Below, piece after piece: positions 10,334 through 54,122 of a DNA stretch of 64,000 nt; position 1 is the first letter of the stretch, and every line of letters begins with the position of its first letter. Source of the DNA: an uncultured Rickettsiales bacterium. Its GTDB lineage: Bacteria; Pseudomonadota; Alphaproteobacteria; Rickettsiales; CANDYO01. Made by a program: the position numbers and the translations under genes. Under the pieces are notes generated by a model. That model searched no databases. It was not told the origin of the DNA and was given only the letters and a program-made list of their open reading frames with translations. The stretch is from positions 16,998 through 80,997 of the forward strand of contig CAYHIS010000001.1 of assembly GCA_964356785.1 (NCBI GenBank). Reading direction: 5' to 3'.

Positions 10334-11749
10334 CTAATACCATCCCAGATACTTCCACCATATACCACCAATACCGGCCCAAATCAATATATTTACTAAG
10401 CTTAATGCAAATCCTATAGTCCACCATTCTCTAATAGAAACGGATTTTGTTTCAAAATAAACTGGCGCAGAAGCTATTCCATAATGAGTAAGCCCACCAC
10501 ATAAAGTGGAAAAATACGCAAGTAGCATCGCCGCAAGCATAGGTGGAACATTGAAGCTAAATAATAAAAGTAAAAAGGTTGTGAATAAAACGGTTACATG
10601 AGCGGTGACGCTAGCAAATAAATAATGTAAATAAAAATAGATTCCTATTAAAATAGGTACAGCGAAAATGGCTTGATAACCACTCAATGACTGACCAATT
10701 TTCATTCCAATCCATTTTATTGTACCAAACTCAGCTAAATAGCCTGATAACATTACCATTATGGCAAACCAAACAAAACTATCCCAAGCATTTTTCTCGT
10801 TTACTGCATCTTGCCAAGTTAGCACTCCTGTAGTTAAAAGAGCAACAACCCCTAACATAGAAACGCCCGTTGCATCTAATCCTATTTTTTTGTCCAGAAT
10901 CCATCCTGTAATTAAAGAGACAAAAACAATCATCATTATTATTTCTTGAATTGTTAATCTTCCCATATGCTTTAGCGCTTCAACAGCATGTTTTGGGGCA
11001 TCAGGAGAATGTTTAATTGCTGGCGGATGCATGAGATACACTAATATTGGCATTACTAATAAAGCAATAATACCAGGAACAATGGCTCCCAGCGCCCATG
11101 AACCCCAAGTAATTTCCACCCCCTCCTTTGAAGCTAAGCTCTGAATTAAGGGATTTGCTGCCATCGCAGTTAAAAACATAGCGCTTGTAATCACATTCGC
11201 TTGCAAGCATACCTGGCTTAAAAAGCCCATATTTCTTTTCTTTTCATTTGGAGTTAGATTTTCTCCATAGGTATTTACCAAAGATTCAACAATAGGATAG
11301 ATAATTCCACCTCCACGAGCCGTAACGCTAGGAATAAGGGGAGAAAGTAAGAATTCTGCAGAAACAAGACCATAAGATAAACCTAAAGTAGTTTTACCCA
11401 ATTTGGAAATAAAATAATATGCGATGCGTTTACCAAGCCCTGTTTTGATAATTCCTCTAGCAATAAAAAAAGCAAAAACTAATAACCAAACTACATTCTC
11501 ACTAAACCCTCGAAGTATCTGCTTAGTAGATAAAACTCCAAGAGCGAGACATGCCCCAGCTCCAAGCAAAGCCACCGCGCTTATAGGAAGTGGATTTAAT
11601 ACTATTCCTAACATAGTACAAATAAAAATCACTAATAGATGCCAACTCTGGAGAGAAAGCTCATCTGAAATAGAATTATGCCAAGCAATTGTTCCTACTA
11701 GAAAAAGAAGCAATAATTTTATGATATTTATATATTTCAAATTTGCCAT
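10334..11749 (-). CDS. DASS-family anion:cation symporter (2-oxoglutarate/malate or dicarboxylate translocator-like)
   Basis: 471 aa, polytopic with about 12-14 TM segments. Segments such as GLGKRIAYYFI, LIPSVTARGGGIIYPI and TLCGGLTHYGIASAPVYF are typical of the SLC13/CitT/SodiT family. Confidence 0.75.
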   Translation of the reverse strand: MANLKYINIIKLLLLFLVGTIAWHNSISDELSLQSWHLLVIFICTMLGIVLNPLPISAVALLGAGACLALGVLSTKQILRGFSENVVWLLVFAFFIARGIIKTGLGKRIAYYFISKLGKTTLGLSYGLVSAEFLLSPLIPSVTARGGGIIYPIVESLVNTYGENLTPNEKKRNMGFLSQVCLQANVITSAMFLTAMAANPLIQSLASKEGVEITWGSWALGAIVPGIIALLVMPILVYLMHPPAIKHSPDAPKHAVEALKHMGRLTIQEIIMMIVFVSLITGWILDKKIGLDATGVSMLGVVALLTTGVLTWQDAVNEKNAWDSFVWFAIMVMLSGYLAEFGTIKWIGMKIGQSLSGYQAIFAVPILIGIYFYLHYLFASVTAHVTVLFTTFLLLLFSFNVPPMLAAMLLAYFSTLCGGLTHYGIASAPVYFETKSVSIREWWTIGFALSLVNILIWAGIGGIWWKYLGWY

Positions 11750-11878
11750 TTAAACCCTCTAAAAATATAATATTATTTAGTGAAGGAGGAGTATATACCA
11801 AATTTAATAATTTGCATATTTTGTTTTTTTATATAAAATATTTTTTTAAAACTATATTTAAGAATTTTCTAGGAAATA

Positions 11879-12586
11879 ATGGATTTTTTTGAGATTACCA
11901 CTTTACTAAACTTACTAACTTTAACAGGATTAGAAATTGTACTTGGCATTGATAATGTAATTTTTATTGCATTATTAGTGCAGCATCTGCGTGGAAAAAG
12001 AAGAACGCATGCACGGGTTTTGGGCCTAAGCCTAGCTCTCATTTTCCGTATATTAATGCTTTTTGGTGCAAGCTGGATAATGACGCTTACAACTCCATTA
12101 TTTACATTAGCAAAATTCCCAATAACCGGAAGAAGCTTACTTCTTATAATAGGTGGATTATTTTTAGTAGTAAAATCTGCTATCGAGCTTAAAGAAATGT
12201 TTTATGAACATAAAGAATCTCAATCACCTAAAGCCGTTGAAACAAGGTTTTTTAAAATTATTGCTCAGATAATTTTTATAGATATAATTCTTTCATTTGA
12301 TTCAATAATTACCGCCGTAGGAATTAGTAATCAATTACCGGTAATGGTTACTGCGGTAGTTATAGCTATAATAGTGATGCTACTTGCTGCAAATCCCATT
12401 GGCAACTTTATATATGAAAATCCTTCGATAAAACTAATGGCCTTAGCCTTTATATTTTTAGTAGGGGTATTCTTAACACTAAGCGGAATTGACATCGAAA
12501 TAGAAAAAGGATATTTATACTTCGCCATGTTCTTCAGTAGTATGGTGGAATGGATGAATATAAAGCTGAAGAGAAAAAATCTATAG
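11879..12586 (+). CDS. TerC-family integral membrane protein
   Basis: 235 aa. LEIVLGIDNVIFIALL and SFDSIITAVG are the duplicated TerC signature segments. Confidence 0.8.
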   Translation: MDFFEITTLLNLLTLTGLEIVLGIDNVIFIALLVQHLRGKRRTHARVLGLSLALIFRILMLFGASWIMTLTTPLFTLAKFPITGRSLLLIIGGLFLVVKSAIELKEMFYEHKESQSPKAVETRFFKIIAQIIFIDIILSFDSIITAVGISNQLPVMVTAVVIAIIVMLLAANPIGNFIYENPSIKLMALAFIFLVGVFLTLSGIDIEIEKGYLYFAMFFSSMVEWMNIKLKRKNL

Positions 12587-12589
12587 CTC

Positions 12590-13678
12590 ATGAAACAATT
12601 ACTTATTTATATTAGAAATTTCTTTTTTTTGCTAATGATTTTTATCATCAGCGTACTAATTTATATTCGCATTTTTTTGCCATTTCCTAATAATTCTGTA
12701 ATAGTTCCTCGTGATGGAGGTACTGGAAACCAAATGTTTATCTATGCAGCTGGATATTCATTAGCTAAAAAAACTAATAGTAAACTCTTCGTGCTGATTG
12801 ACGAAAAGGATATGCAAAATAACCCTTATAATTCACAAAGAAGAAATTTCGTCTTTCATAAATTAAATATCCCTCAAGAATCTGTTATATATCAGAGTAA
12901 ATTAAATAAATTATTTACTAAACTATACATAAAACTTAAGTTAAAAGGTGCGCAACGCAATAAAGAGTTAGATATATTAAGAGACTTACTTAAAATAGTT
13001 TTTAATGTTAAGTTAGTTGACGATCAAAATTTTTTTGATGTTGTAAAACAAAAAAATAATCAAGTTTTATTGATGAATGACTATTTGGAGTCCTATCTTT
13101 ATTTTGAAGACTATAAAGATGATTTAATAAAATTATTTACTCCATCAGATCTTAACATTAAGAATTTGGAAAACATAGTTTCGCAGGTTTCTAATAAAAC
13201 TTCTATATGTGTTCATGTTAGAAGAACTGACAAAATAGATTCAAAGCATTACTTACCTATAGATTATCAAAAACAAGCTATAAATTTAGCCAAAGAATCT
13301 ATCAGCAACCCAACTTTTTTTATATTTTCTGATGACATTGATATGACTAAAAAAGAATTGGGCAATATAACAAATAGCATTTATGTAAGTGGGCATTCAT
13401 CGATAGAGGACTTTTATATACTAAATAACTGTCATAATATTATAGTCGCAAATAGCTCGTTTAGTTGGTGGGCAGCTTATTTAAATAAACAAAAAGATAG
13501 ACTAGTAATAGCCCCTTATCCAAAATATAGCCCAGAGTTTTTTCTAGAGGCTTATGATGATGGTATAAGACGTCAAAAACAAAAACTATCACAAATAGGT
13601 TATTGCCCAAAAGAATGGATATTACTTGACTACCAAAAAAATCAAATTACTTTTAACTCCAAAGAAAAAGAAAATTAA
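12590..13678 (+). CDS. Alpha-1,2-fucosyltransferase (GT11) with N-terminal membrane anchor
   Basis: 362 aa. GGTGNQMFIYAAGYSLA (GT11 N-terminal motif), CVHVRRTD (HxRRxD motif I) and ANSSFSWWAAYL (motif III). Anchor FFFLLMIFIISVLIYIRIF. Confidence 0.85.
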   Translation: MKQLLIYIRNFFFLLMIFIISVLIYIRIFLPFPNNSVIVPRDGGTGNQMFIYAAGYSLAKKTNSKLFVLIDEKDMQNNPYNSQRRNFVFHKLNIPQESVIYQSKLNKLFTKLYIKLKLKGAQRNKELDILRDLLKIVFNVKLVDDQNFFDVVKQKNNQVLLMNDYLESYLYFEDYKDDLIKLFTPSDLNIKNLENIVSQVSNKTSICVHVRRTDKIDSKHYLPIDYQKQAINLAKESISNPTFFIFSDDIDMTKKELGNITNSIYVSGHSSIEDFYILNNCHNIIVANSSFSWWAAYLNKQKDRLVIAPYPKYSPEFFLEAYDDGIRRQKQKLSQIGYCPKEWILLDYQKNQITFNSKEKEN

Positions 13679-13680
13679 TT

Positions 13681-14676
13681 ATGAAAATACGTAACTTATT
13701 AATAATTTTATCAATTCTTGCAACAATAATATCTTTATATTATCTTCAACATAATCGTATAAAATATAAAATAAAAATATTTGCATTAGAGAAAACTGTT
13801 GCAGAAACTGGAAGAGAACTTTTTCCTAGATATAAATTCGCCACTCAAGATTTAATCAAAACATATGAGAATGATTTATCTACTATAACCAAAGAAGATT
13901 TCTTATTAGCTAAAGAAACCGCCTCACAAGAAGAAAAAGTAAAATTTTGCGTTGTAATACCTTCTTATAATAATGTAAATTATGCCACCCAAAATATTAA
14001 CTCTGTTTTTCGTCAAAATTATCATAATTGGAGAGCAATTATTATTGATGATAATTCAAATGATGGAATGAGTGAGTTGCTAGTTAAAATAAAGCAAGAA
14101 AGCAATTTGCCTGATGAAAAATTAACTATACTAAGACATGAAACAAGAATGCGCTCAGCATTATATAGCACACATTACGCTGCTAATAATTTTTGTAAAG
14201 ATAATGAAGTATTAGTAATGCTTGATGGAGATGATATGCTTGCCACTTCAAGTGCTTTAAAACAGTTAGCTGAAGTCTATCAAGATGGCTCAATCTGGGT
14301 TACATATGGGCAGCAGTTGGATAATAACGGAACCCCTTGTAATTGTAGCCGCGAAATATCTAAAGAAAAATGGCAAGAGATAAGAAATTCACCCTTTGAT
14401 ACTTCTCACCTAAAAACATGTTATACATGGTTATTTAGAAAAATAAAACTAGAGGATTTAAAATATCAAGGTAGATTTATTACTTCAGCTTGCGATATAC
14501 CAATCATGTTTCCTGTTTTAGAAATGGCAGGGAAAGAAAGAGTAAAAGCTATGGATCATATATTATATATTTGGAGAACTCATCAAAATAATGAAAATAA
14601 AATATATTCTAAGGAACAAAAGAAAGTAGCAGAATATGTAAGCAAATTACCAAAGTATAAAAAACTAGATTTATAA
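13681..14676 (+). CDS. GT2-family glycosyltransferase, copy 1 of a tandem duplicate, N-terminal anchor
   Basis: 331 aa. FCVVIPSYNNVNYATQNINSVFRQNY...IIIDDNSNDG...VMLDGDDML is a GT-A fold with the DxD motif. Anchor LLIILSILATIISLYYL. Confidence 0.85.
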   Translation: MKIRNLLIILSILATIISLYYLQHNRIKYKIKIFALEKTVAETGRELFPRYKFATQDLIKTYENDLSTITKEDFLLAKETASQEEKVKFCVVIPSYNNVNYATQNINSVFRQNYHNWRAIIIDDNSNDGMSELLVKIKQESNLPDEKLTILRHETRMRSALYSTHYAANNFCKDNEVLVMLDGDDMLATSSALKQLAEVYQDGSIWVTYGQQLDNNGTPCNCSREISKEKWQEIRNSPFDTSHLKTCYTWLFRKIKLEDLKYQGRFITSACDIPIMFPVLEMAGKERVKAMDHILYIWRTHQNNENKIYSKEQKKVAEYVSKLPKYKKLDL

Positions 14677-14721
14677 AAAATATTATTAATCTAGCCAAGT
14701 AACATGTAAGGAAAATCAATC

Positions 14722-15714
14722 ATGAGAATCCGCAATTTAATTTTAATTATATCATTAATAATAACAATTATTTCTCTTTATTATCTTCAACATAATCGTA
14801 TAAAGCATAAAAGAAAAATACTTGCATTGAAGGAAATAGTTGCAGAGCCGGGAAGAGCGCTTCTTCCTAGGTATAAATTCGCAACTCAAGATCTAATCAA
14901 AACATATGAGAATGATTTATCTACTATAACAAAGGAAGATTTCTTATTAGCTAAAGAAATCGCCTCACAAGAAGAAAAAGTAAAATTTTGTGTTGTAATA
15001 CCTTCTTATAATAACGTAAATTATGCCACGCAAAATATTAATTCTGTTTTTCGTCAAAATTATCATAATTGGAGAGCAATTATTATTGATGATGGATCCA
15101 ATGATGGAATGAGTGAATTACTAGTTAAAATAAAACAAGACAGCAATTTGCCTGATGAAAAGTTAACTATCCTAAGACATGAAACAAGGATACGTTCAGC
15201 GTTATATAGTTTTTATGAAGCTACACATAATTTTTGTAAAGATGATGAAGTGTTAGTGATGCTTGATGGAGATGATATGTTGGCTACCTCAAGCACTTTA
15301 AAGCAATTAGCTTCGGTTTACGAAGATAGCTCAATTTGGGTAACATATGGGCAGCAGCTAGATACAAATGGCACCCCATGCAATTGTAGCGATGAAATAC
15401 CTAAAGAAAAATGGCCATATATAAGAAAATTACCCTTTACTACCTCTCACTTAAGAACTTGCTATACATGGTTGTTTAATCAAATAGCATTAAAAGACCT
15501 GCAATATCAAGGAGAGTTTCTTAACTCTGGTTGGGATTTAGCGATAATGTATCCTATTTTAGAAATGGCAGGAAAAGCAAGAGTAAAAGCCATGGATCAT
15601 ATATTGTATATATGGAGAACACATGAAAATAATGATGGAAAAATATATTCTCAAGAACAAAAGGAACTCACAAAATATATTAGCAGTCTACCAAAATATA
15701 AACAGTTAGATTAA
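14722..15714 (+). CDS. GT2-family glycosyltransferase, copy 2 of a tandem duplicate
   Basis: 330 aa, colinear with copy 1. My hand alignment gives about 65 mismatches over 330 positions. Residues ~51-124 are almost identical and the C-terminal third has diverged. Confidence 0.85.
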   Translation: MRIRNLILIISLIITIISLYYLQHNRIKHKRKILALKEIVAEPGRALLPRYKFATQDLIKTYENDLSTITKEDFLLAKEIASQEEKVKFCVVIPSYNNVNYATQNINSVFRQNYHNWRAIIIDDGSNDGMSELLVKIKQDSNLPDEKLTILRHETRIRSALYSFYEATHNFCKDDEVLVMLDGDDMLATSSTLKQLASVYEDSSIWVTYGQQLDTNGTPCNCSDEIPKEKWPYIRKLPFTTSHLRTCYTWLFNQIALKDLQYQGEFLNSGWDLAIMYPILEMAGKARVKAMDHILYIWRTHENNDGKIYSQEQKELTKYISSLPKYKQLD

Positions 15715-15766
15715 GGGCTACATCATTTAAAGAATAAATTTCAATTGCTTCTATAGAAATAAAAAG

Positions 15767-16711
15767 TTAAAAACATGGTTCATAAAGTTGATTTCTTAAC
15801 AACCATTCACTGATTTTCTTACTTTTAGAAAAAAACTTAAGCTCTTTATTAAAAGTTTGAGAAGTTAAACTTCTTTCATCGTGACGTCTAGTAACGCAAA
15901 AAGCCTTTGCATGCGCTGGAAATTCTTTGTAAACAGTAAAATTTTCTGGGTTTTGATAATATAATGCCGTTAAAATAGCTTGATCATGGCGATGATCTTT
16001 AAAATCAGGATACTCATTTTTGCTTGCAATATCTGTTAACAACTCCGGATCTTCACAATAATGCAGCCAATTTTTCACAAGTTTTCTTGTTTTTGCATTA
16101 TTCTTAATAAGCAGGAAACCACCTTGGAATTGAATTTTATCTCTAACTAACTCATTACTATTAAGCATCTTATCAATTATAGTTCTTTTCATATATATTC
16201 TATTTGTATGGCTATTAGGAAATAAAGTGAAATCATTGTTTTTAGTTTCTTCTAATAATTTATAAATTCCCTCTTTAATTAAAGCAGATCTATCTAGATA
16301 AAGCAAAACATCACCTTCATTCATCATATTTAATGTTTTGAGTATAATATATGGTTTCCATAACCAATATCCAGCACCTCTTGTTTGAGACAGAATAAAT
16401 TTATTTTTCTTATAAAATTCTGGGTCAATATGATGGGGTTGATAAGGTAATATTACATCAAAAACTCCAGCCATAGATGCACTCATATTTAAGTTGTTCT
16501 GATTCTGAATATATATTCCATGACTAGCATATGAAATTAACCAAAGCTTCTCCTTTTTATAAACTTTATAAGCATTTTTTATCGGATATGTAGATATATC
16601 CGTTGAATCTCGAAAGTCCTTTAAAGATAATATGCATAAATATAAGAATATTGATAAGAAAACTAATACTATTACAATAATATATAAAATATTTATTTTA
16701 AAATTTCTCAT
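15767..16711 (-). CDS. Uncharacterised membrane-anchored protein, probable GT-A-like sugar transferase ('GAGYWLWKPY' family)
   Basis: 314 aa. Anchor ILYIIVIVLVFLSIFLYLCIL. Motifs RGAGYWLWKPYIILKTL, LLYLDRSA (DxD-like position) and HRHDQAILT. Paralog of the partial ORF at 63197. The family assignment is inference from context only. Confidence 0.45.
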   Translation of the reverse strand: MRNFKINILYIIVIVLVFLSIFLYLCILSLKDFRDSTDISTYPIKNAYKVYKKEKLWLISYASHGIYIQNQNNLNMSASMAGVFDVILPYQPHHIDPEFYKKNKFILSQTRGAGYWLWKPYIILKTLNMMNEGDVLLYLDRSALIKEGIYKLLEETKNNDFTLFPNSHTNRIYMKRTIIDKMLNSNELVRDKIQFQGGFLLIKNNAKTRKLVKNWLHYCEDPELLTDIASKNEYPDFKDHRHDQAILTALYYQNPENFTVYKEFPAHAKAFCVTRRHDERSLTSQTFNKELKFFSKSKKISEWLLRNQLYEPCF

Positions 16712-17651
16712 CTATTTTCCTTTTTAATATTGGTGCTAATTTCTGTCTTAGTTTATTTTTCATATTTTCATAATCCATTTTATGATCGGTAATTATAATC
16801 TGCTCCCAAATTTCGCAATATTTCTTATCATTCTTATCTACTTCTATAATATAGTTAACTAAATCTTCTTCTGTTTCAAAGTCTTGTGCTGAAATAATAG
16901 CTTTTTTATTAATATCTTCTTGAGCTTTAATATCAGCATAATAAATAGGAACTGAGCCTGAGAAATAAGCATTAAAAACTTTTTCTGTTGTATAGCCAGG
17001 ATATGTTTGATTTTCATAAGCAATTACAAATTTACATTTTGATAAAAATTCCAACGTATCTTCAGAAGAAACGGTTTTACCTATGTTATTAAGATGCCCC
17101 CCACCACTTACTACGGGTTTATATAAAGAAAGTCTATGAAACAAACGATCACGAGCTGAAACTCCATCATAATATCGCTCTTTAGACCCATTCCCAACTA
17201 AAAAACAAGCAAAATGAGGATGGTCATTTTTACATTTCCCTCTTTTGAAAGAAGGTTCTAGGTTTTTATTTATATTATTATAAAAATAATATAAAGGAAT
17301 TCTTATATAATTAGACCATTCTTCATCGATAGGTGCAAAGCCTATAGACAAATCATAATTTTCTAATTTTGCAGGGTAAGCCTCGCCTATAAAGAAAATT
17401 TTAATTGCGTTATTATTATTGATCGGATCGTTTCCGAATACACTATTAATTATTAAATCATAATCGTCTTTGTTTGTAATTTTAATTACATATTTTTCCT
17501 CTAATATTTCTTTTATCATAGAAAAATCAGTAATTTTTGCGTTTTGATGTAAATTTTGTAACTTTACTTTAATAACTGGTCTAGAATGAGTTGAGTAAAT
17601 AAAAACACTAGAGCATATTATTACAAATACTGTAAAAATCTTAAAAATCAC
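16698..17651 (-). CDS. Alpha-1,3(/4)-fucosyltransferase (GT10) with N-terminal anchor
   Basis: 317 aa with a GTG start. KFVIAYENQTYPGYTTEKVFNAYFSGSVPIYYA matches the GT10 alpha-1,3-FucT motif (FENS..GY.TEK...A...G.VP.Y.G). FACFLVGNG...R..L...LSLYKPVVSGG matches the preceding conserved block. Confidence 0.8.
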   Translation of the reverse strand: MIFKIFTVFVIICSSVFIYSTHSRPVIKVKLQNLHQNAKITDFSMIKEILEEKYVIKITNKDDYDLIINSVFGNDPINNNNAIKIFFIGEAYPAKLENYDLSIGFAPIDEEWSNYIRIPLYYFYNNINKNLEPSFKRGKCKNDHPHFACFLVGNGSKERYYDGVSARDRLFHRLSLYKPVVSGGGHLNNIGKTVSSEDTLEFLSKCKFVIAYENQTYPGYTTEKVFNAYFSGSVPIYYADIKAQEDINKKAIISAQDFETEEDLVNYIIEVDKNDKKYCEIWEQIIITDHKMDYENMKNKLRQKLAPILKRKIDEKF

Positions 17652-36370: not shown

Positions 36371-36400
36371 GGATATAATTGGATATAAATGGATATTTTA
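36371..36400 (+). promoter_or_regulatory. Three tandem 10-bp direct repeats (GGATATAA/T..) immediately upstream of fic
   Basis: GGATATAATT / GGATATAAAT / GGATATTTTA at 36371, 36381 and 36391, exactly one helical turn apart. The array ends 2 nt before the ATG at 36403. Confidence 0.4.
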
Positions 36401-36402
36401 TT

Positions 36403-37452
36403 ATGCTTAATATAGAAAACATTATTATAACTCCCGATATTTTAAAAAAAATTGCAGAACTTGATGAGTTCAAAGGTCGTTGGAAAGCTATTGAAAATCT
36501 AGCTCCAGAACGCTTATACATTCTAAAACGCGTCGCCAGCATTGAAAGCGTTGGCTCTTCCACTCGCATTGAGGGTTCAAAACTTACCGATAAAGAAGTA
36601 GAAAGGCTTCTTTCTAATTTAGATAGAAAATCATTTGCTACTAGAGATGAACAAGAAGTAGCTGGCTATGCTGACGCTATGGATATAGTATTTAATGAAC
36701 ATAGCTCCATTACTATTACTGAAAATCATATTAAACAGTTACATGGAATTTTATTAAAGTATAGCGTTAAAGATCAAGATCATAGTGGAGAATATAAGAA
36801 AATCACTAATCATGTAGAAGCCTTTGATTTAGACGGAAAAAGCATAGGTGTTGTTTTCCAAACAGCTACTCCATTTGAGACCCCTATAATGATGAAAAAA
36901 TTGCTTGAATGGTATAACCAACAGATAAATGAAGAAAAGCAACATCCATTGCTTTTGATCTCTATATTCATTGTTGTATTTCTAGCAATACATCCATTTA
37001 AAGATGGTAATGGTAGATTATCACGAATCCTTACAACTTTGCTTTTATTACATGCTGGCTACACGTACGTTCCTTATAGTTCAATGGAAAGCGTTATTGA
37101 GGTAAATAAAGATGGCTATTATTTAGCCTTAAGACATACACAAAAAACTATTCGCACCAAAAAGCAAGATTGGGAGCCCTGGATTTTATATTTTCTGAGG
37201 ACCATGTTGAAGCAAAAAGATAATTTGGCCACAAAAATAAAGGAAGAACAGTCTCTTCGTACATCTCTACCTGCGCTTTCTAGACAAATTTTAGAGTTAG
37301 TAAATGCGCGCGGAGATATCAGCATAAAGGAAATTGAGAAAACTACTGCCGCTAATCGCAGTACCATTAAAGTACATTTAAAAAAATTAACAGAACAAGG
37401 TTATTTGATGTCTATTGGCGGAGGGCGTGGGGCTCACTATATCAAAAAATAG
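36403..37452 (+). CDS. fic: Fic-family protein (class II, with N-terminal inhibitory helix and C-terminal winged-helix)
   Basis: Active-site loop HPFKDGNGRLSR (HxFx[DE]GNGRxxR). Inhibitory motif STRIEG ([ST]xxxE[GN]) upstream. C-terminal wHTH-like region (EIEKTTAANRSTIKVHLKKLTEQGYL). The track ORF begins at TTG 36379 inside the repeats, but I prefer ATG 36403. Confidence 0.85.
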   Translation: MLNIENIIITPDILKKIAELDEFKGRWKAIENLAPERLYILKRVASIESVGSSTRIEGSKLTDKEVERLLSNLDRKSFATRDEQEVAGYADAMDIVFNEHSSITITENHIKQLHGILLKYSVKDQDHSGEYKKITNHVEAFDLDGKSIGVVFQTATPFETPIMMKKLLEWYNQQINEEKQHPLLLISIFIVVFLAIHPFKDGNGRLSRILTTLLLLHAGYTYVPYSSMESVIEVNKDGYYLALRHTQKTIRTKKQDWEPWILYFLRTMLKQKDNLATKIKEEQSLRTSLPALSRQILELVNARGDISIKEIEKTTAANRSTIKVHLKKLTEQGYLMSIGGGRGAHYIKK

Positions 37453-45388: not shown

Positions 45389-45406
45389 TTGAACGTTTAG
45401 GATTGG

Positions 45407-45511
45407 TATACCTATCACACTTCAAAAGTTGGCAGGAGCTAGGAGCGATGTGTACAACTAGTTACATGAGCGACGAAGTGACGCACCAAATCTTGAAGTG
45501 TGATAGGTATA
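45407..45511. repeat. Palindromic element, family A (105 bp), filling the glpX/perM convergent gap
   Basis: Terminal inverted repeats TATACCTATCACACTTCAAAAGTTGG (45407..45432) and CCAAATCTTGAAGTGTGATAGGTATA (45486..45511). The core (reverse complement) is CTCATGTAAC-TAGT-TGTACAC. The right end directly abuts the stop codon of the minus-strand gene at 45512. Confidence 0.85.
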
Positions 45512-46552
45512 TTAGTATAACTTTTTCATAACTAAGCTTCTTATGATCACTCCTACAATTGCTGCTATCGGAACAGCAAAAAACATTCCCCAGAATCCAA
45601 ATAACGCTCCGCCAGCCATTATAGAGAAAATCACCCAGACCGGATTAAGACCCACTTTTTCTCCTACAAGTTTAGGTGTAATTATATAGCTTTCGATCAG
45701 ATGACCGAATAAGAAAATTACTAAGGTTATATACATATGTTTTAAATCTGAAAATTGTATCAGAGCAACTAGAGCGCAAATTAATCCACCAATTATAAGG
45801 CCCAAATAAGGTATTATAGCAAGAAATCCAGCTATAATTCCAACAAGTAATGCGTAATCTAAACCGACTAGACTAAGGCTTACAATATAAAATAATGCTA
45901 GAAGCAAACAAACGCTCATTTGCCCGCGCACATAAGAAGAGAGAACTTTATCTATTTGACTAAATAAATCTAAAATTACTTTCTTCTGGTTTATTGGAAG
46001 TATGTCTTTTATATTTTTTGTAAAACTTGGCCAGTCTCTTAATAAGTAAAATACAAGAATCGGAGTGAATAAAATTAATCCTACAAGATTAAATATGGCC
46101 ATTCCAGAATCAAAAATACTTTGAATTGCTGACATTATATATTTAAAAAACTCACTAGAAAGATTAGTAAATTGCTGCCTTATAGTTTCTGCAAAATCAG
46201 GAGCAACCTTAATGAGAATACCATCTAACTTCTTTGAGGCAAATTCAGCAAAATATTTTTCGTAATCTGGTATATGCAATATAAAAGCTTTTACTTGGTG
46301 AATCAGACTTGGAACTAAACGAATAAAGCTTAGTACTAAAATAAGAAAAAATACCCCAACTATTATACTAACTGTTAAGCCTCTTTTTACCTTTAATTTC
46401 TCTAGACGGATGGTTAATGGGTCTAAGAAGTAAGCTATAATTAAACTTGCTATGAACGGAGTGAGTATAGACCTTACTTCATTTAAGAAGAGTATTATTA
46501 TACCAAATATTATGAACCAGAAAATTAATTTAGAAACTTGCATATTGTTCAT
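45512..46552 (-). CDS. AI-2E family transporter (PerM/YhhT-like permease)
   Basis: 346 aa with about 8 TM segments. C-terminal GEKVGLNPVWVIFSIMAGGALFGFWGMFFAVPIAA is typical of PF01594-type permeases. Confidence 0.8.
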   Translation of the reverse strand: MNNMQVSKLIFWFIIFGIIILFLNEVRSILTPFIASLIIAYFLDPLTIRLEKLKVKRGLTVSIIVGVFFLILVLSFIRLVPSLIHQVKAFILHIPDYEKYFAEFASKKLDGILIKVAPDFAETIRQQFTNLSSEFFKYIMSAIQSIFDSGMAIFNLVGLILFTPILVFYLLRDWPSFTKNIKDILPINQKKVILDLFSQIDKVLSSYVRGQMSVCLLLALFYIVSLSLVGLDYALLVGIIAGFLAIIPYLGLIIGGLICALVALIQFSDLKHMYITLVIFLFGHLIESYIITPKLVGEKVGLNPVWVIFSIMAGGALFGFWGMFFAVPIAAIVGVIIRSLVMKKLY

Positions 46553-47740: not shown

Positions 47741-47825
47741 ACCATTTTTTAGAACTAAAGTTTACAGATTCGAGATGTGAGCACACGAATCTTCAATAAT
47801 TTGGATTTATAAATTTAATTATAGA
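47741..47825. repeat. Palindromic element, family B, short copy (core deleted)
   Basis: TAGAACTAAAGTTTACAGATTCGAGATGTGAGC matches the 21472 element right arm (reverse complement). ACACGAATCTTCAATAATTTGGATTTATAAATTTAATTATAGAAATTGGTAT matches the reverse complement of its left arm. The central CTCATGTAC...TGTAC core is missing. Confidence 0.75.
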
Positions 47826-47845
47826 AATTGGTATAACATATTTTA

Positions 47846-53015: not shown

Positions 53016-54122
53016 TGAAAACAGAAATAGAAAACTTAATTACCCAAATAAAGCAAACTTTAGAATTGCTAAGGGGGTCTCTTTGACTATGAATCATCAA
53101 TCTTAAAAATTCAGAAACTTGAAGAACAAGCTAATGATCAAGCCCTTTGGGAAGATCCACAAAAAGCGCAAAGAATATTACAAGAAAAAAACCATCTTAC
53201 AGAGTCAATCAATCAATATGACAGTCTAACTCAAAAATTCAAAGATTTAACAGAGCTAATAAACTTAGCTGAAGAAGAAAAGGATCTTGCATTATTAGAA
53301 GAAGCAGAAAAAGATATATTTACTCTTTCTAAAACTGTACAAAAGCTTGAGATTGAGTGTCTTTTTTCATCTGAAGCAGATCAAAAAGATTGTTTTCTTG
53401 AAATTCATGCTGGTGCAGGTGGAACAGAGAGTCATGACTGGGCACAAATGCTTTTACGAATGTATTTAAGATGGGCTGAAAAACATAAATTTAAAATTGA
53501 ATATATTGATCAAATCTCAGGTGAAGAAGCTGGAGTTAAATCTGTGACTATTAAAATCCACGGATATAATGCTTATGGTTTCTGTAAATGTGAAAATGGA
53601 GTTCACCGCCTAGTCCGTCTATCACCCTTTAATGCAGCCGGAAAAAGGCAAACAAGCTTTGCTAGTGTTTTTTCTTATCCTGTGCTCACAGATAATATAA
53701 ATGTTGAAATAAATGAAAAGGATTTAAGAATTGATACTTATCGCTCTTCAGGCGCTGGTGGACAGCATGTAAATACCACTGATAGCGCTGTAAGAATTAC
53801 CCATATTCCTACCTCTATTGTTGTGCAATGTCAAAGCGATCGCTCACAACATAAGAATAAAGCAGAAGCTATGTCTATGCTTAAAGCTAAACTTTATGAT
53901 CTTGAGTTACAGACTAGACAAGAAAAAATAGATAACTTAAATAAATCTAAAACTGAAATAGGTTGGGGGCATCAAATCCGCTCATATGTTCTTCATCCAT
54001 ATAGAATGGTTAAAGATTTACGTACAGACTTTGAGACTAGTGATACTGATGCTATTCTAGATGGCGATCTAGATGAGTTTATGCTTTCCTATCTTAAGTT
54101 TTTAGCTGTAAAGAAACCTTGA
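53015..54122 (+). CDS. prfB: Peptide chain release factor 2, requiring a programmed +1 frameshift at 53084
   Basis: Frame 0 reads MKTEIENLITQIKQTLELLRGSL then TGA (53084..53086). The +1 frame continues DYESSILKIQKLEEQANDQALWEDPQKAQ... and joins the track ORF 53448..54122, which contains SGAGGQHVNTTDSAVRITHIPT and SPF. Confidence 0.95.
53072..53087 (+). promoter_or_regulatory. RF2 autoregulatory +1 frameshift site (SD-like AGGGGG, then CTT TGA C)
   Basis: AGGGGG TCT CTT TGA C is nearly identical to the E. coli prfB site AGGGGG TAT CTT TGA C. Confidence 0.9.

Follow-up and report, generated by a model that had tools for sequence, protein, structure and literature searches.

The 64,000-nucleotide stretch of contig CAYHIS010000001.1 analysed in this study (hereafter the window) carries an island of five adjacent genes, which encode a GT11-family glycosyltransferase, a tandem pair of GT2-family glycosyltransferases (GT2a and GT2b), a protein without a described family (UNK) and a GT10-family glycosyltransferase. 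We consider it fairly probable that this island is a variable surface-glycan cluster, most likely one that builds the outer core or O-unit of lipopolysaccharide or lipooligosaccharide (LPS/LOS) and finishes it with 6-deoxyhexose caps. The five genes are intact, their family assignments hold, the motifs for donor binding and catalysis are conserved, and the same modules recur and fuse with one another in related genomes. What we infer is which acceptor and donor sugar are used, in which order and with which linkages the enzymes act, and that the product ends up on LPS. An earlier sequence-only reading of this DNA had placed the five open reading frames (ORFs) at the coordinates recovered here (Table 1), and all of them are full-length relative to their homologs.

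The two fucosyltransferase-type proteins matched their proposed families above the Pfam gathering cut-offs, and their catalytic motifs are intact rather than degenerate, in agreement with the earlier assignment. The GT11 protein matched PF01531 with 90 bits (cut-off 23.9; E 2e-25) over profile positions 7-284 of 298, and the GT10 protein matched both PF00852 (63.1 bits, cut-off 23.9, E 3.4e-17) and the FucT_N domain PF18025 (49.7 bits, cut-off 27.2, E 5e-13). NCBIfam gave zero equivalog assignments for the five island proteins. Three of the motifs quoted in the sequence-only reading, GGTGNQMF (residue 43), HVRRTD (residue 209) and AYENQTYPGYTTEKVFNAYFSGSVPIYY (residue 211), are present as quoted, whereas the one given as SNSSFSWWAAYL contained a wrong letter and actually reads ANSSFSWWAAYL, not SNSS. 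The GT11 protein thus carries the HxRRxD (HVRRTD), GGxGNQxF (GGTGNQMF) and SxFSWW (NSSFSWWAAYL) motifs. It is alpha-1,2-fucosyltransferase-type by family and motifs, and transfer to a terminal galactose is predicted. Its subfamily is small, with only 63 of 20,651 detectable relatives reaching E<=1e-30.

The GT10 protein is a bacterial-type enzyme, because its family profile aligned with the Helicobacter pylori FucT structure (2nzw) across both domains at full length (E 2e-42), whereas human FUT9 was matched more weakly (E 8e-21) and in its C-terminal part only. An origin of this gene from a eukaryote or a giant virus was rejected on the same comparison. In a pairwise alignment, residues E90, N214, Y220, E223 and K224 of the window protein align with E95, N240, Y246, E249 and K250 of the H. 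pylori enzyme, and the family-invariant R167 corresponds to R195 in the profile alignment; E90, R167, Y220, E223 and K224 are invariant or nearly so across the family. We take H. pylori E95, R195, Y246, E249 and K250 to be the catalytic base and GDP-fucose contacts seen in 2nzw, a residue list that reportedly goes back to work by Sun and colleagues in 2007. Judged by these residues, the window enzyme would probably transfer L-fucose from GDP-fucose in an alpha-1,3/4 linkage. It ends at residue 317, just past the catalytic domain, without the C-terminal heptad repeats and amphipathic membrane-binding helices.

Both GT2 proteins matched PF00535 (GT2a 57.9 bits, E 1.6e-15; GT2b 53.6 bits, E 3.4e-14; cut-off 23.3) and have a DGDD motif at residue 182. 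In NCBIfam, GT2a showed weak, sub-threshold similarity to TuaG, PgaC, PglI and EpsE. The two genes form a direct DNA repeat (D1) with a spacing of 1041 nt and are 86% identical over their first 300 nt. At the protein level they share 80% identity, so that the pair, previously called near-identical, is better described as a diverged tandem duplicate.

The UNK protein matched no family in Pfam or NCBIfam. Its AlphaFold2 (AF2) model (pLDDT 90.7) has a GT-A fold, and Foldseek retrieved XXYLT1, glycogenin, LgtC and PBCV-1 A64R with probability 1.0, E values of about 1e-6 and TM-scores of about 0.4, which bears out the GT-A-like description given earlier to the unassigned fifth gene. It is structurally closer to uncharacterised glycosyltransferases of giant viruses and cyanophages (Foldseek E 1e-19, 21-26% identity). 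UNK has 897 homologs; among 42 of them that were sampled, 11 matched Pfam GT34, three Nucleotid_trans and three GT8. Conserved motifs include D140-x-S/G in place of the canonical DxD and an invariant H242 within HRHDQ. The idea that UNK is an HtrL_YibB domain that became separated from the fused GT11 proteins described below was rejected (hhalign probability 1%).

The distribution of the GT10 subfamily was surveyed with one genome per GTDB species at >=32% identity, which yielded 27 loci. Fifteen of them carry the label Rickettsiaceae, Rickettsia or Rickettsiales; the remainder are mostly metagenome-assembled genomes (MAGs) of Alphaproteobacteria or Proteobacteria. In all, roughly 20 genomes of Rickettsiales, Rickettsiaceae and Rickettsia have the subfamily. 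Complete genomes of Rickettsia endosymbionts carry a GT10 homolog at 45-50% identity. For an alpha-(1,3)-fucosyltransferase ortholog group of Rickettsia (RiOG_866), Gillespie et al. 2008 (PMC2635572) described a full-length gene in R. bellii and decaying copies in tick-associated species. According to the sequence-only reading, a GT10/GT11 pairing is not known to be characteristic of Rickettsiales-type genomes, but the GT10 subfamily is found mainly in this order, has been on record since 2008, and recurs together with GT11.

In the closest relative (L007; GT10 71% and PntB 85% identical), GT10, a methyltransferase gene and GT11 lie beside pntAB-glpX, and in another locus (L138; GT10 55% identical) GT25, GT10, a methyltransferase gene, a GT11-HtrL_YibB fusion and a UNK-like gene are clustered. 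In one protein of 855 aa (P0335), GT10 and GT11 are fused, and the GT10 half shares 47% identity with the window GT10; another (P0338) is a GT2-GT11 fusion. These fusions, together with the repeated clustering in L138 and L007, suggest functional coupling of these enzymes. A further candidate pairing (P0022/P0325, on contigs of equal length) was rejected, as GT10 stands alone there within +/-10 kb. Among 80 unrelated environmental GT11 loci (generic GT11s of about 30% identity, among the matches listed), five have a GT10 nearby, suggesting that GT10-GT11 adjacency is a recurrent minority arrangement in bacteria generally. The GT10-UNK pair recurs in GCA_041447055.1, where it is bordered on one side by GT25, GT90, a CAP59-like gene and Glyco_trans_1_2 genes, and on the other by an ankyrin-repeat protein gene followed by lpxI-lpxA-fabZ-lpxD. 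Fusion to HtrL_YibB, a Pfam family that takes its name from genes in the LPS-core locus of enterobacteria, is frequent among the nearest GT11 relatives.

Several GT10 copies are decayed. The homolog of R. tamurae AT-1 (L027:10001-10790) is split over three frames and is a pseudogene, and L138:11782-11925 holds a 48-codon remnant of a second GT10 copy, so the family evidently turns over and decays. A Rickettsiales-type GT10 (L023) and a UNK homolog (P0143) are deposited under MAGs labelled 'Janthinobacterium lividum', which is probably a binning or labelling error.

We propose that the five encoded proteins are inner-membrane-anchored Leloir glycosyltransferases that would work one after another on a lipid-linked acceptor. 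GT2a and GT2b may add beta-linked hexose or N-acetylhexosamine residues, the GT8/GT34-like UNK enzyme may add an alpha-linked hexose, and GT10 and GT11 would cap the chain with alpha-1,3/4- and alpha-1,2-linked 6-deoxyhexose, probably L-fucose from GDP-fucose. Since the window encodes KdsD, LptC/LptA, BamA, Skp and a PagL-like protein, the organism makes LPS. An LPS/LOS outer-glycan cluster is indicated by the families neighbouring GT10, by the lpx neighbourhood and the HtrL_YibB fusions, and by the function of the closest characterised homolog, the H. pylori FucT, which fucosylates the O-antigen of LPS. The families most frequent among the 120 GT10 neighbours in 19 Rickettsiales-type loci are GT2 with 11 genes, GT25 ('LPS biosynthesis') with five, FkbM methyltransferase with five and GNAT with three, followed by two each of DegT, FdtA, Epimerase and GT61.

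A ManC-like mannose-1-phosphate guanylyltransferase gene adjoins GT11 in the closest relative (TIGR01479 E 2e-43 over the nucleotidyltransferase half, below the full-length cut-off), which mildly favours a self-made GDP-sugar donor. As the donor-contacting residues are also all conserved, GDP-fucose seems the likeliest donor. On its own, the ManC-like gene would fit any GDP-sugar, fucose and others alike. Host mimicry by Lewis-type structures, as in H. pylori, is a conjecture: a Lewis-type product would need a galactosyltransferase that forms N-acetyllactosamine, and GT25, the family of the H. pylori beta-1,4-galactosyltransferase, stands beside GT10 in relatives of the island but is absent from the 64-kb window.

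Several observations weigh against an LPS/LOS cluster with fucose caps. The window has neither gmd, fcl and fkp nor waaL, wzx, wzy and wecA-type genes. The absence of the GDP-fucose genes, already pointed out in the sequence-only reading, was confirmed, in that no Epimerase/GDP_Man_Dehyd-type ORF of at least 150 aa occurs in the 64 kb; nor were gmd, fcl and fkp found in the roughly 10 kb that adjoin it on the left (L140), and the roughly 4 kb on the right (L053) hold unrelated genes only and none for donor synthesis. In the closest relative, the HxRRxD motif of GT11 is degenerate (CLDTKIGD), which suggests that the GT10/GT11 pairing is not uniformly maintained. A Rickettsia GT10 homolog of 45% identity sits in a dTDP-sugar cluster with RmlA and RmlB (both above NCBIfam cut-offs), FdtA and DegT, so the donor of this subfamily may not always be GDP-fucose. 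The charge bias around the membrane anchors of UNK and GT11 predicts an N-in/C-out (type-II, Golgi-like) orientation with the catalytic domain outside the cytoplasm. The literature searched holds no biochemical data on members of these Rickettsiales subfamilies.

The dTDP-sugar cluster, in which the Rickettsia homolog is accompanied by rmlA-rmlB-fdtA-degT and an acetyltransferase gene, bears on the possibility that the island has the same surface-glycan role while GT10 and/or GT11 transfer another deoxy-sugar, giving a product that is not fucosylated or Lewis-like. Candidate donors would be a dTDP-linked 3-amino-3,6-dideoxyhexose (for example Fuc3NAc or Qui3NAc) or a GDP-linked sugar (for example colitose, D-rhamnose or mannose). 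The recurrence of FdtA, DegT and Epimerase near GT10 in other Rickettsiales loci and the lack of GDP-fucose genes in the window also favour such a donor, and GT11 in CAZy includes a colitosyltransferase, WbgN of Escherichia coli O55. We nevertheless hold it to be unlikely, since all GDP-fucose-contacting residues of the H. pylori FucT are kept in the window GT10 and the HxRRxD motif is kept in its GT11; the ManC-like gene likewise points to a GDP-sugar, albeit not specifically to fucose.

Membrane topology bears on where the enzymes work. A hydrophobic N-terminal segment is present in all five island glycosyltransferases and in the three complete ones at 444-3947, that is, in all eight of the window, and this anchor is conserved in 19 of 26 GT10, 38 of 42 UNK and 15 of 17 GT11 family members. 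By a positive-inside count, which is a crude rule, more lysine and arginine residues follow the anchor in 16 of 19 GT10 members, and also in GT2a and GT2b, predicting cytoplasmic catalytic domains, whereas the UNK and GT11 families have a net charge of +2.1 before the anchor versus +0.3 to +0.6 after it. These opposite predictions cannot both hold for one pathway. If the UNK and GT11 orientation is taken at face value, the enzymes could work extracytoplasmically, at the periplasmic face, on the surface or after secretion, with host nucleotide sugars and on the bacterium's own envelope or on host glycoconjugates. The lack of donor-synthesis genes in the window would fit this, and there is an analogy in gonococci, whose surface sialyltransferase Lst takes CMP-sialic acid from the host. 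A Midichloria protein with fucosyltransferase and HtrL/YibB domains has been proposed as an effector (preprint 10.1101/2022.05.16.490919), which also counts in its favour. Besides the crudeness of the rule, the opposite bias of the GT10 family and GT2a/b, gene neighbourhoods that are LPS-like rather than effector-like, and an N-terminal membrane anchor atypical of type IV secretion substrates make this location quite improbable. We give an equally low chance to its specific form, in which the GT11 and UNK catalytic domains lie outside and an intracellular bacterium without GDP-fucose synthesis fucosylates its own envelope or host glycans with host GDP-fucose that gets to the periplasm or the cell surface; if true, it would be the fucose counterpart of gonococcal sialylation by Lst.

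The glycan may also be something other than LPS, either a capsule or exopolysaccharide or a glycan attached to proteins. No waaL or core heptosyl/Kdo transferase gene is adjacent, GT2 and GT-A enzymes are generic, and the capsule-type GT90 and CAP59-like families stand beside GT10 in GCA_041447055.1. The window encodes no polymerase, exporter or oligosaccharyltransferase, however, and the lpx genes and GT25 neighbours of relatives point to LPS/LOS, so we regard a non-LPS product as quite improbable.

Taken as an LPS/LOS cluster, the island resembles known systems to different degrees. The LPS Lewis-antigen fucosyltransferases of H. pylori, FutA/FutB (GT10) and FutC (GT11), belong to the same two CAZy families. 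Over 256 aligned residues, the window GT10 shares about 35% identity with the H. pylori FucT (2nzw), whose donor-binding and catalytic residues it keeps, and the window GT11 keeps the motifs common to the family of FutC. In H. pylori, however, FucT has C-terminal heptad repeats and amphipathic helices where the window GT10 has an N-terminal anchor instead, and the GT10 and GT11 genes are scattered. The island clusters both with GT2 and GT-A genes.

Within the same order, the RiOG_866 and endosymbiont GT10 proteins of Rickettsia are of the same subfamily (45-56% identity, FucT_N plus GT10 domains). They are solitary, or lie in a dTDP-aminodeoxyhexose cluster with GT61 and DUF6492, or beside GT25; they are often decaying, as in the frameshifted copy of R. 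tamurae, and no GT11 partner was seen there. The GT11-HtrL_YibB fusions are the nearest relatives of the window GT11 (37-48% identity) and share its N-terminal anchor and GT11 motifs, but have a C-terminal HtrL_YibB domain of about 300 aa that it lacks. Midichloria MIDI_RS01890, a candidate described in the literature, has this architecture and may belong to the same subfamily. The retaining GT8/GT34/GT77 enzymes (LgtC, glycogenin, XXYLT1 and PBCV-1 A64R) have the GT-A fold in common with UNK, yet differ from it in having a canonical DxD and are only 10-15% identical to it, with TM-scores of about 0.4.

GT10-centred glycosyltransferase islets are thus common in Rickettsiales and have been noted in the literature before, and the partnership with GT11 recurs in relatives; we regard the island as a further bacterial LPS-fucosyltransferase-type cluster, not a new kind of system. 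To our knowledge, hardly any glycosyltransferase that assembles surface glycans in Rickettsiales has been characterised. The LPS O-antigen was recently shown to be critical for the survival of Rickettsia in host cells (bioRxiv 10.64898/2026.06.12.731980; PMC12201665). GT10-centred modules, with GT25, GT2, GT11, GT8/34-like enzymes and methyltransferases as partners, are widespread in Rickettsiales, shuffled between genomic sites and decaying in some Rickettsia, and they yield candidate enzymes for fucosylated or deoxyhexose-capped LOS in endosymbionts of protists and arthropods. The value of the present island is that of a catalogue entry and a source of N-terminally anchored bacterial fucosyltransferase variants; its anchor architecture and the source of its donor sugar are the modestly interesting points.

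The flanks of the island, TerC on one side and rplU/rpmA on the other, were confirmed from the ORF list and a Pfam match to TerC. On the plus strand, the gaps between terC, GT11, GT2a and GT2b are 3, 2 and 45 nt, and terC and GT11, with a 3-nt gap on the same strand, may be co-transcribed; on the minus strand, the GT10 and UNK genes overlap by 14 nt. Promoter-like sites lie upstream of terC (11743-11771, the best on the plus strand) and of rplU (17861-17888). Counts in a promoter and terminator scan of the island equalled those of shuffled sequence and were hence uninformative.

Table 1. Island genes, their flanks and related glycosyltransferase loci, in coordinates of the window
Feature	Coordinates	Strand	Basis	Remarks
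TerC-family membrane protein	11879..12586	+	ORF; Pfam TerC on identical ENA contig	Upstream flank
GT11-family (alpha-1,2-fucosyltransferase-type) glycosyltransferase, 362 aa	12590..13678	+	Pfam PF01531	N-terminal hydrophobic anchor, catalytic domain directly after
GT2a, GT2 (GT-A, inverting-type) glycosyltransferase, 331 aa	13681..14676	+	Pfam PF00535	Anchor, ~65-aa linker, catalytic domain
GT2b, tandem paralog of GT2a, 330 aa	14722..15714	+	Pfam PF00535	
UNK, GT-A-fold glycosyltransferase of an undescribed family related to GT8/GT34/GT77, 314 aa	15767..16711	-	Fold	25-residue N-terminal transmembrane helix
GT10-family (alpha-1,3/4-fucosyltransferase-type) glycosyltransferase, 317 aa	16698..17651	-	Pfam FucT_N + Glyco_transf_10	N-terminal anchor
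Spacer, 273 bp, between the GT10-UNK pair and divergent rplU-rpmA	17652..17924			Contains 21-codon ORF
UNK paralog (P0094), 58% identity (tblastn), truncated by window end	63197..64000	+	tblastn	Directly after LD-carboxypeptidase gene (ENA contigs L053-L055)
Second cluster of membrane-anchored glycosyltransferases	444..3947	-	Pfam	Two GT32-like DXD transferases (Gly_transf_sug/TcdA-TcdB-like) and one Glyco_trans_1_2

The sequence-only reading had also suspected an IS30-like insertion-sequence scar at the border of the island, which found no support here. The sole candidate is the 21-codon ORF MTEYHQIALEERKNISLRKLG in the spacer between GT10 and rplU, in which an 'ALEER' stretch loosely recalls the N-termini of IS30 proteins. 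In a six-frame translation of the spacer the 26-aa peptide had no Pfam match at E<=1, and the repeat search of the window found no repeat copy and no inverted or flanking repeat at 17652-17924. An IS30 remnant was therefore rejected, there being no transposase (HTH_38/rve) similarity and no terminal inverted repeats. There is also no clear sign of recent horizontal transfer, with no tRNA, integrase or flanking repeat at the island, and the GC content of the island (0.26-0.31) is matched by other window segments that are equally low. Over longer timescales the module moves or is rearranged, because it occupies different chromosomal sites in three related lineages.

Glycosyltransferase genes related to the island occur elsewhere in the window. 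UNK (16257-16603) and its paralog (63275-63621) form an inverted DNA repeat (I1) of 71% identity. The GT32-like transferases at the window start (1-3947, minus strand) are part of a four-copy tandem array that continues to the left (ENA contig L140:4741-9520; tandem repeats D2-D9), of which two copies lie completely and a third partly within the window; the array shows weak TcdA/TcdB-type similarity, and each of its members, like the Glyco_trans_1_2 protein, has a hydrophobic segment at the N-terminus. The neighbouring Glyco_trans_1_2 gene has two tandem homologs (51-52% identity) 5 kb from GT10 in a Rickettsiales MAG (L031), and families of this second cluster also adjoin GT10 in GCA_041447055.1. 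The second cluster probably belongs to the same glycan pathway as the island.

The assignment of this DNA to a Rickettsiales-type genome, made previously without database searches, agrees with MnmG, whose best named relatives (75% identity) are labelled 'MAG Rickettsiales bacterium'; relatives of lower identity, about 60%, include Rickettsiales bacterium Ac37b and MAGs labelled 'Rickettsiaceae bacterium' and 'Rickettsiales endosymbiont'. Identical proteins occur on ENA contigs from samples Hain_H43_02um (by name, Hainich groundwater) and in an NCBI MAG with locus tags AABY27_, whose reads are from Hainich well H43 (ENA ERZ1292635/38/40). The window has a GC content of about 0.31-0.32 and encodes an alphaproteobacterial-type nuo operon (NuoL with NADH5_C).

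Several further features were observed in and beside the window. A methyl-accepting chemotaxis protein (3947-6857, minus strand; HAMP and MCPsignal domains) adjoins a periplasmic binding protein, which suggests a less reduced, possibly motile lineage, as chemotaxis genes are unusual for classical Rickettsiales. An ORF of 108 aa (8686-9012, minus strand) covers only the N-terminal radical-SAM CxxxCxxC part (CPENCSYCTQSAHH) of a biotin-synthase-like protein and looks like a gene remnant or pseudogene. Two families of intergenic inverted-repeat elements (8515-8633 / 45406-45522 and 21470-21594 / 47746-47836), each element about 60-120 nt long and made of two blocks, with 76-89% identity between copies tens of kb apart, may be small dispersed repeats like those known from Rickettsia genomes. 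A release-factor ORF (53448-54122, plus strand) begins at position 121 of the PCRF profile, which places its N-terminal part in another frame and is consistent with a +1 programmed frameshift in prfB. A protein of 510 aa (19363-20895, minus strand), conserved on ENA contigs, combines two DnaJ (J) domains with a C-terminal module that is duplicated internally. To the left of the window and past the GT32 array, L140:10555-15853 encodes an HTH_17 protein, a Bro-N/ANT antirepressor-like protein, a HATPase_c protein and an NB-ARC/TPR STAND NTPase, and resembles the surroundings of a mobile element or of defence genes. At 36379-37452 on the plus strand lies a gene for a Fic/DOC-domain protein that ends in a winged-helix domain.

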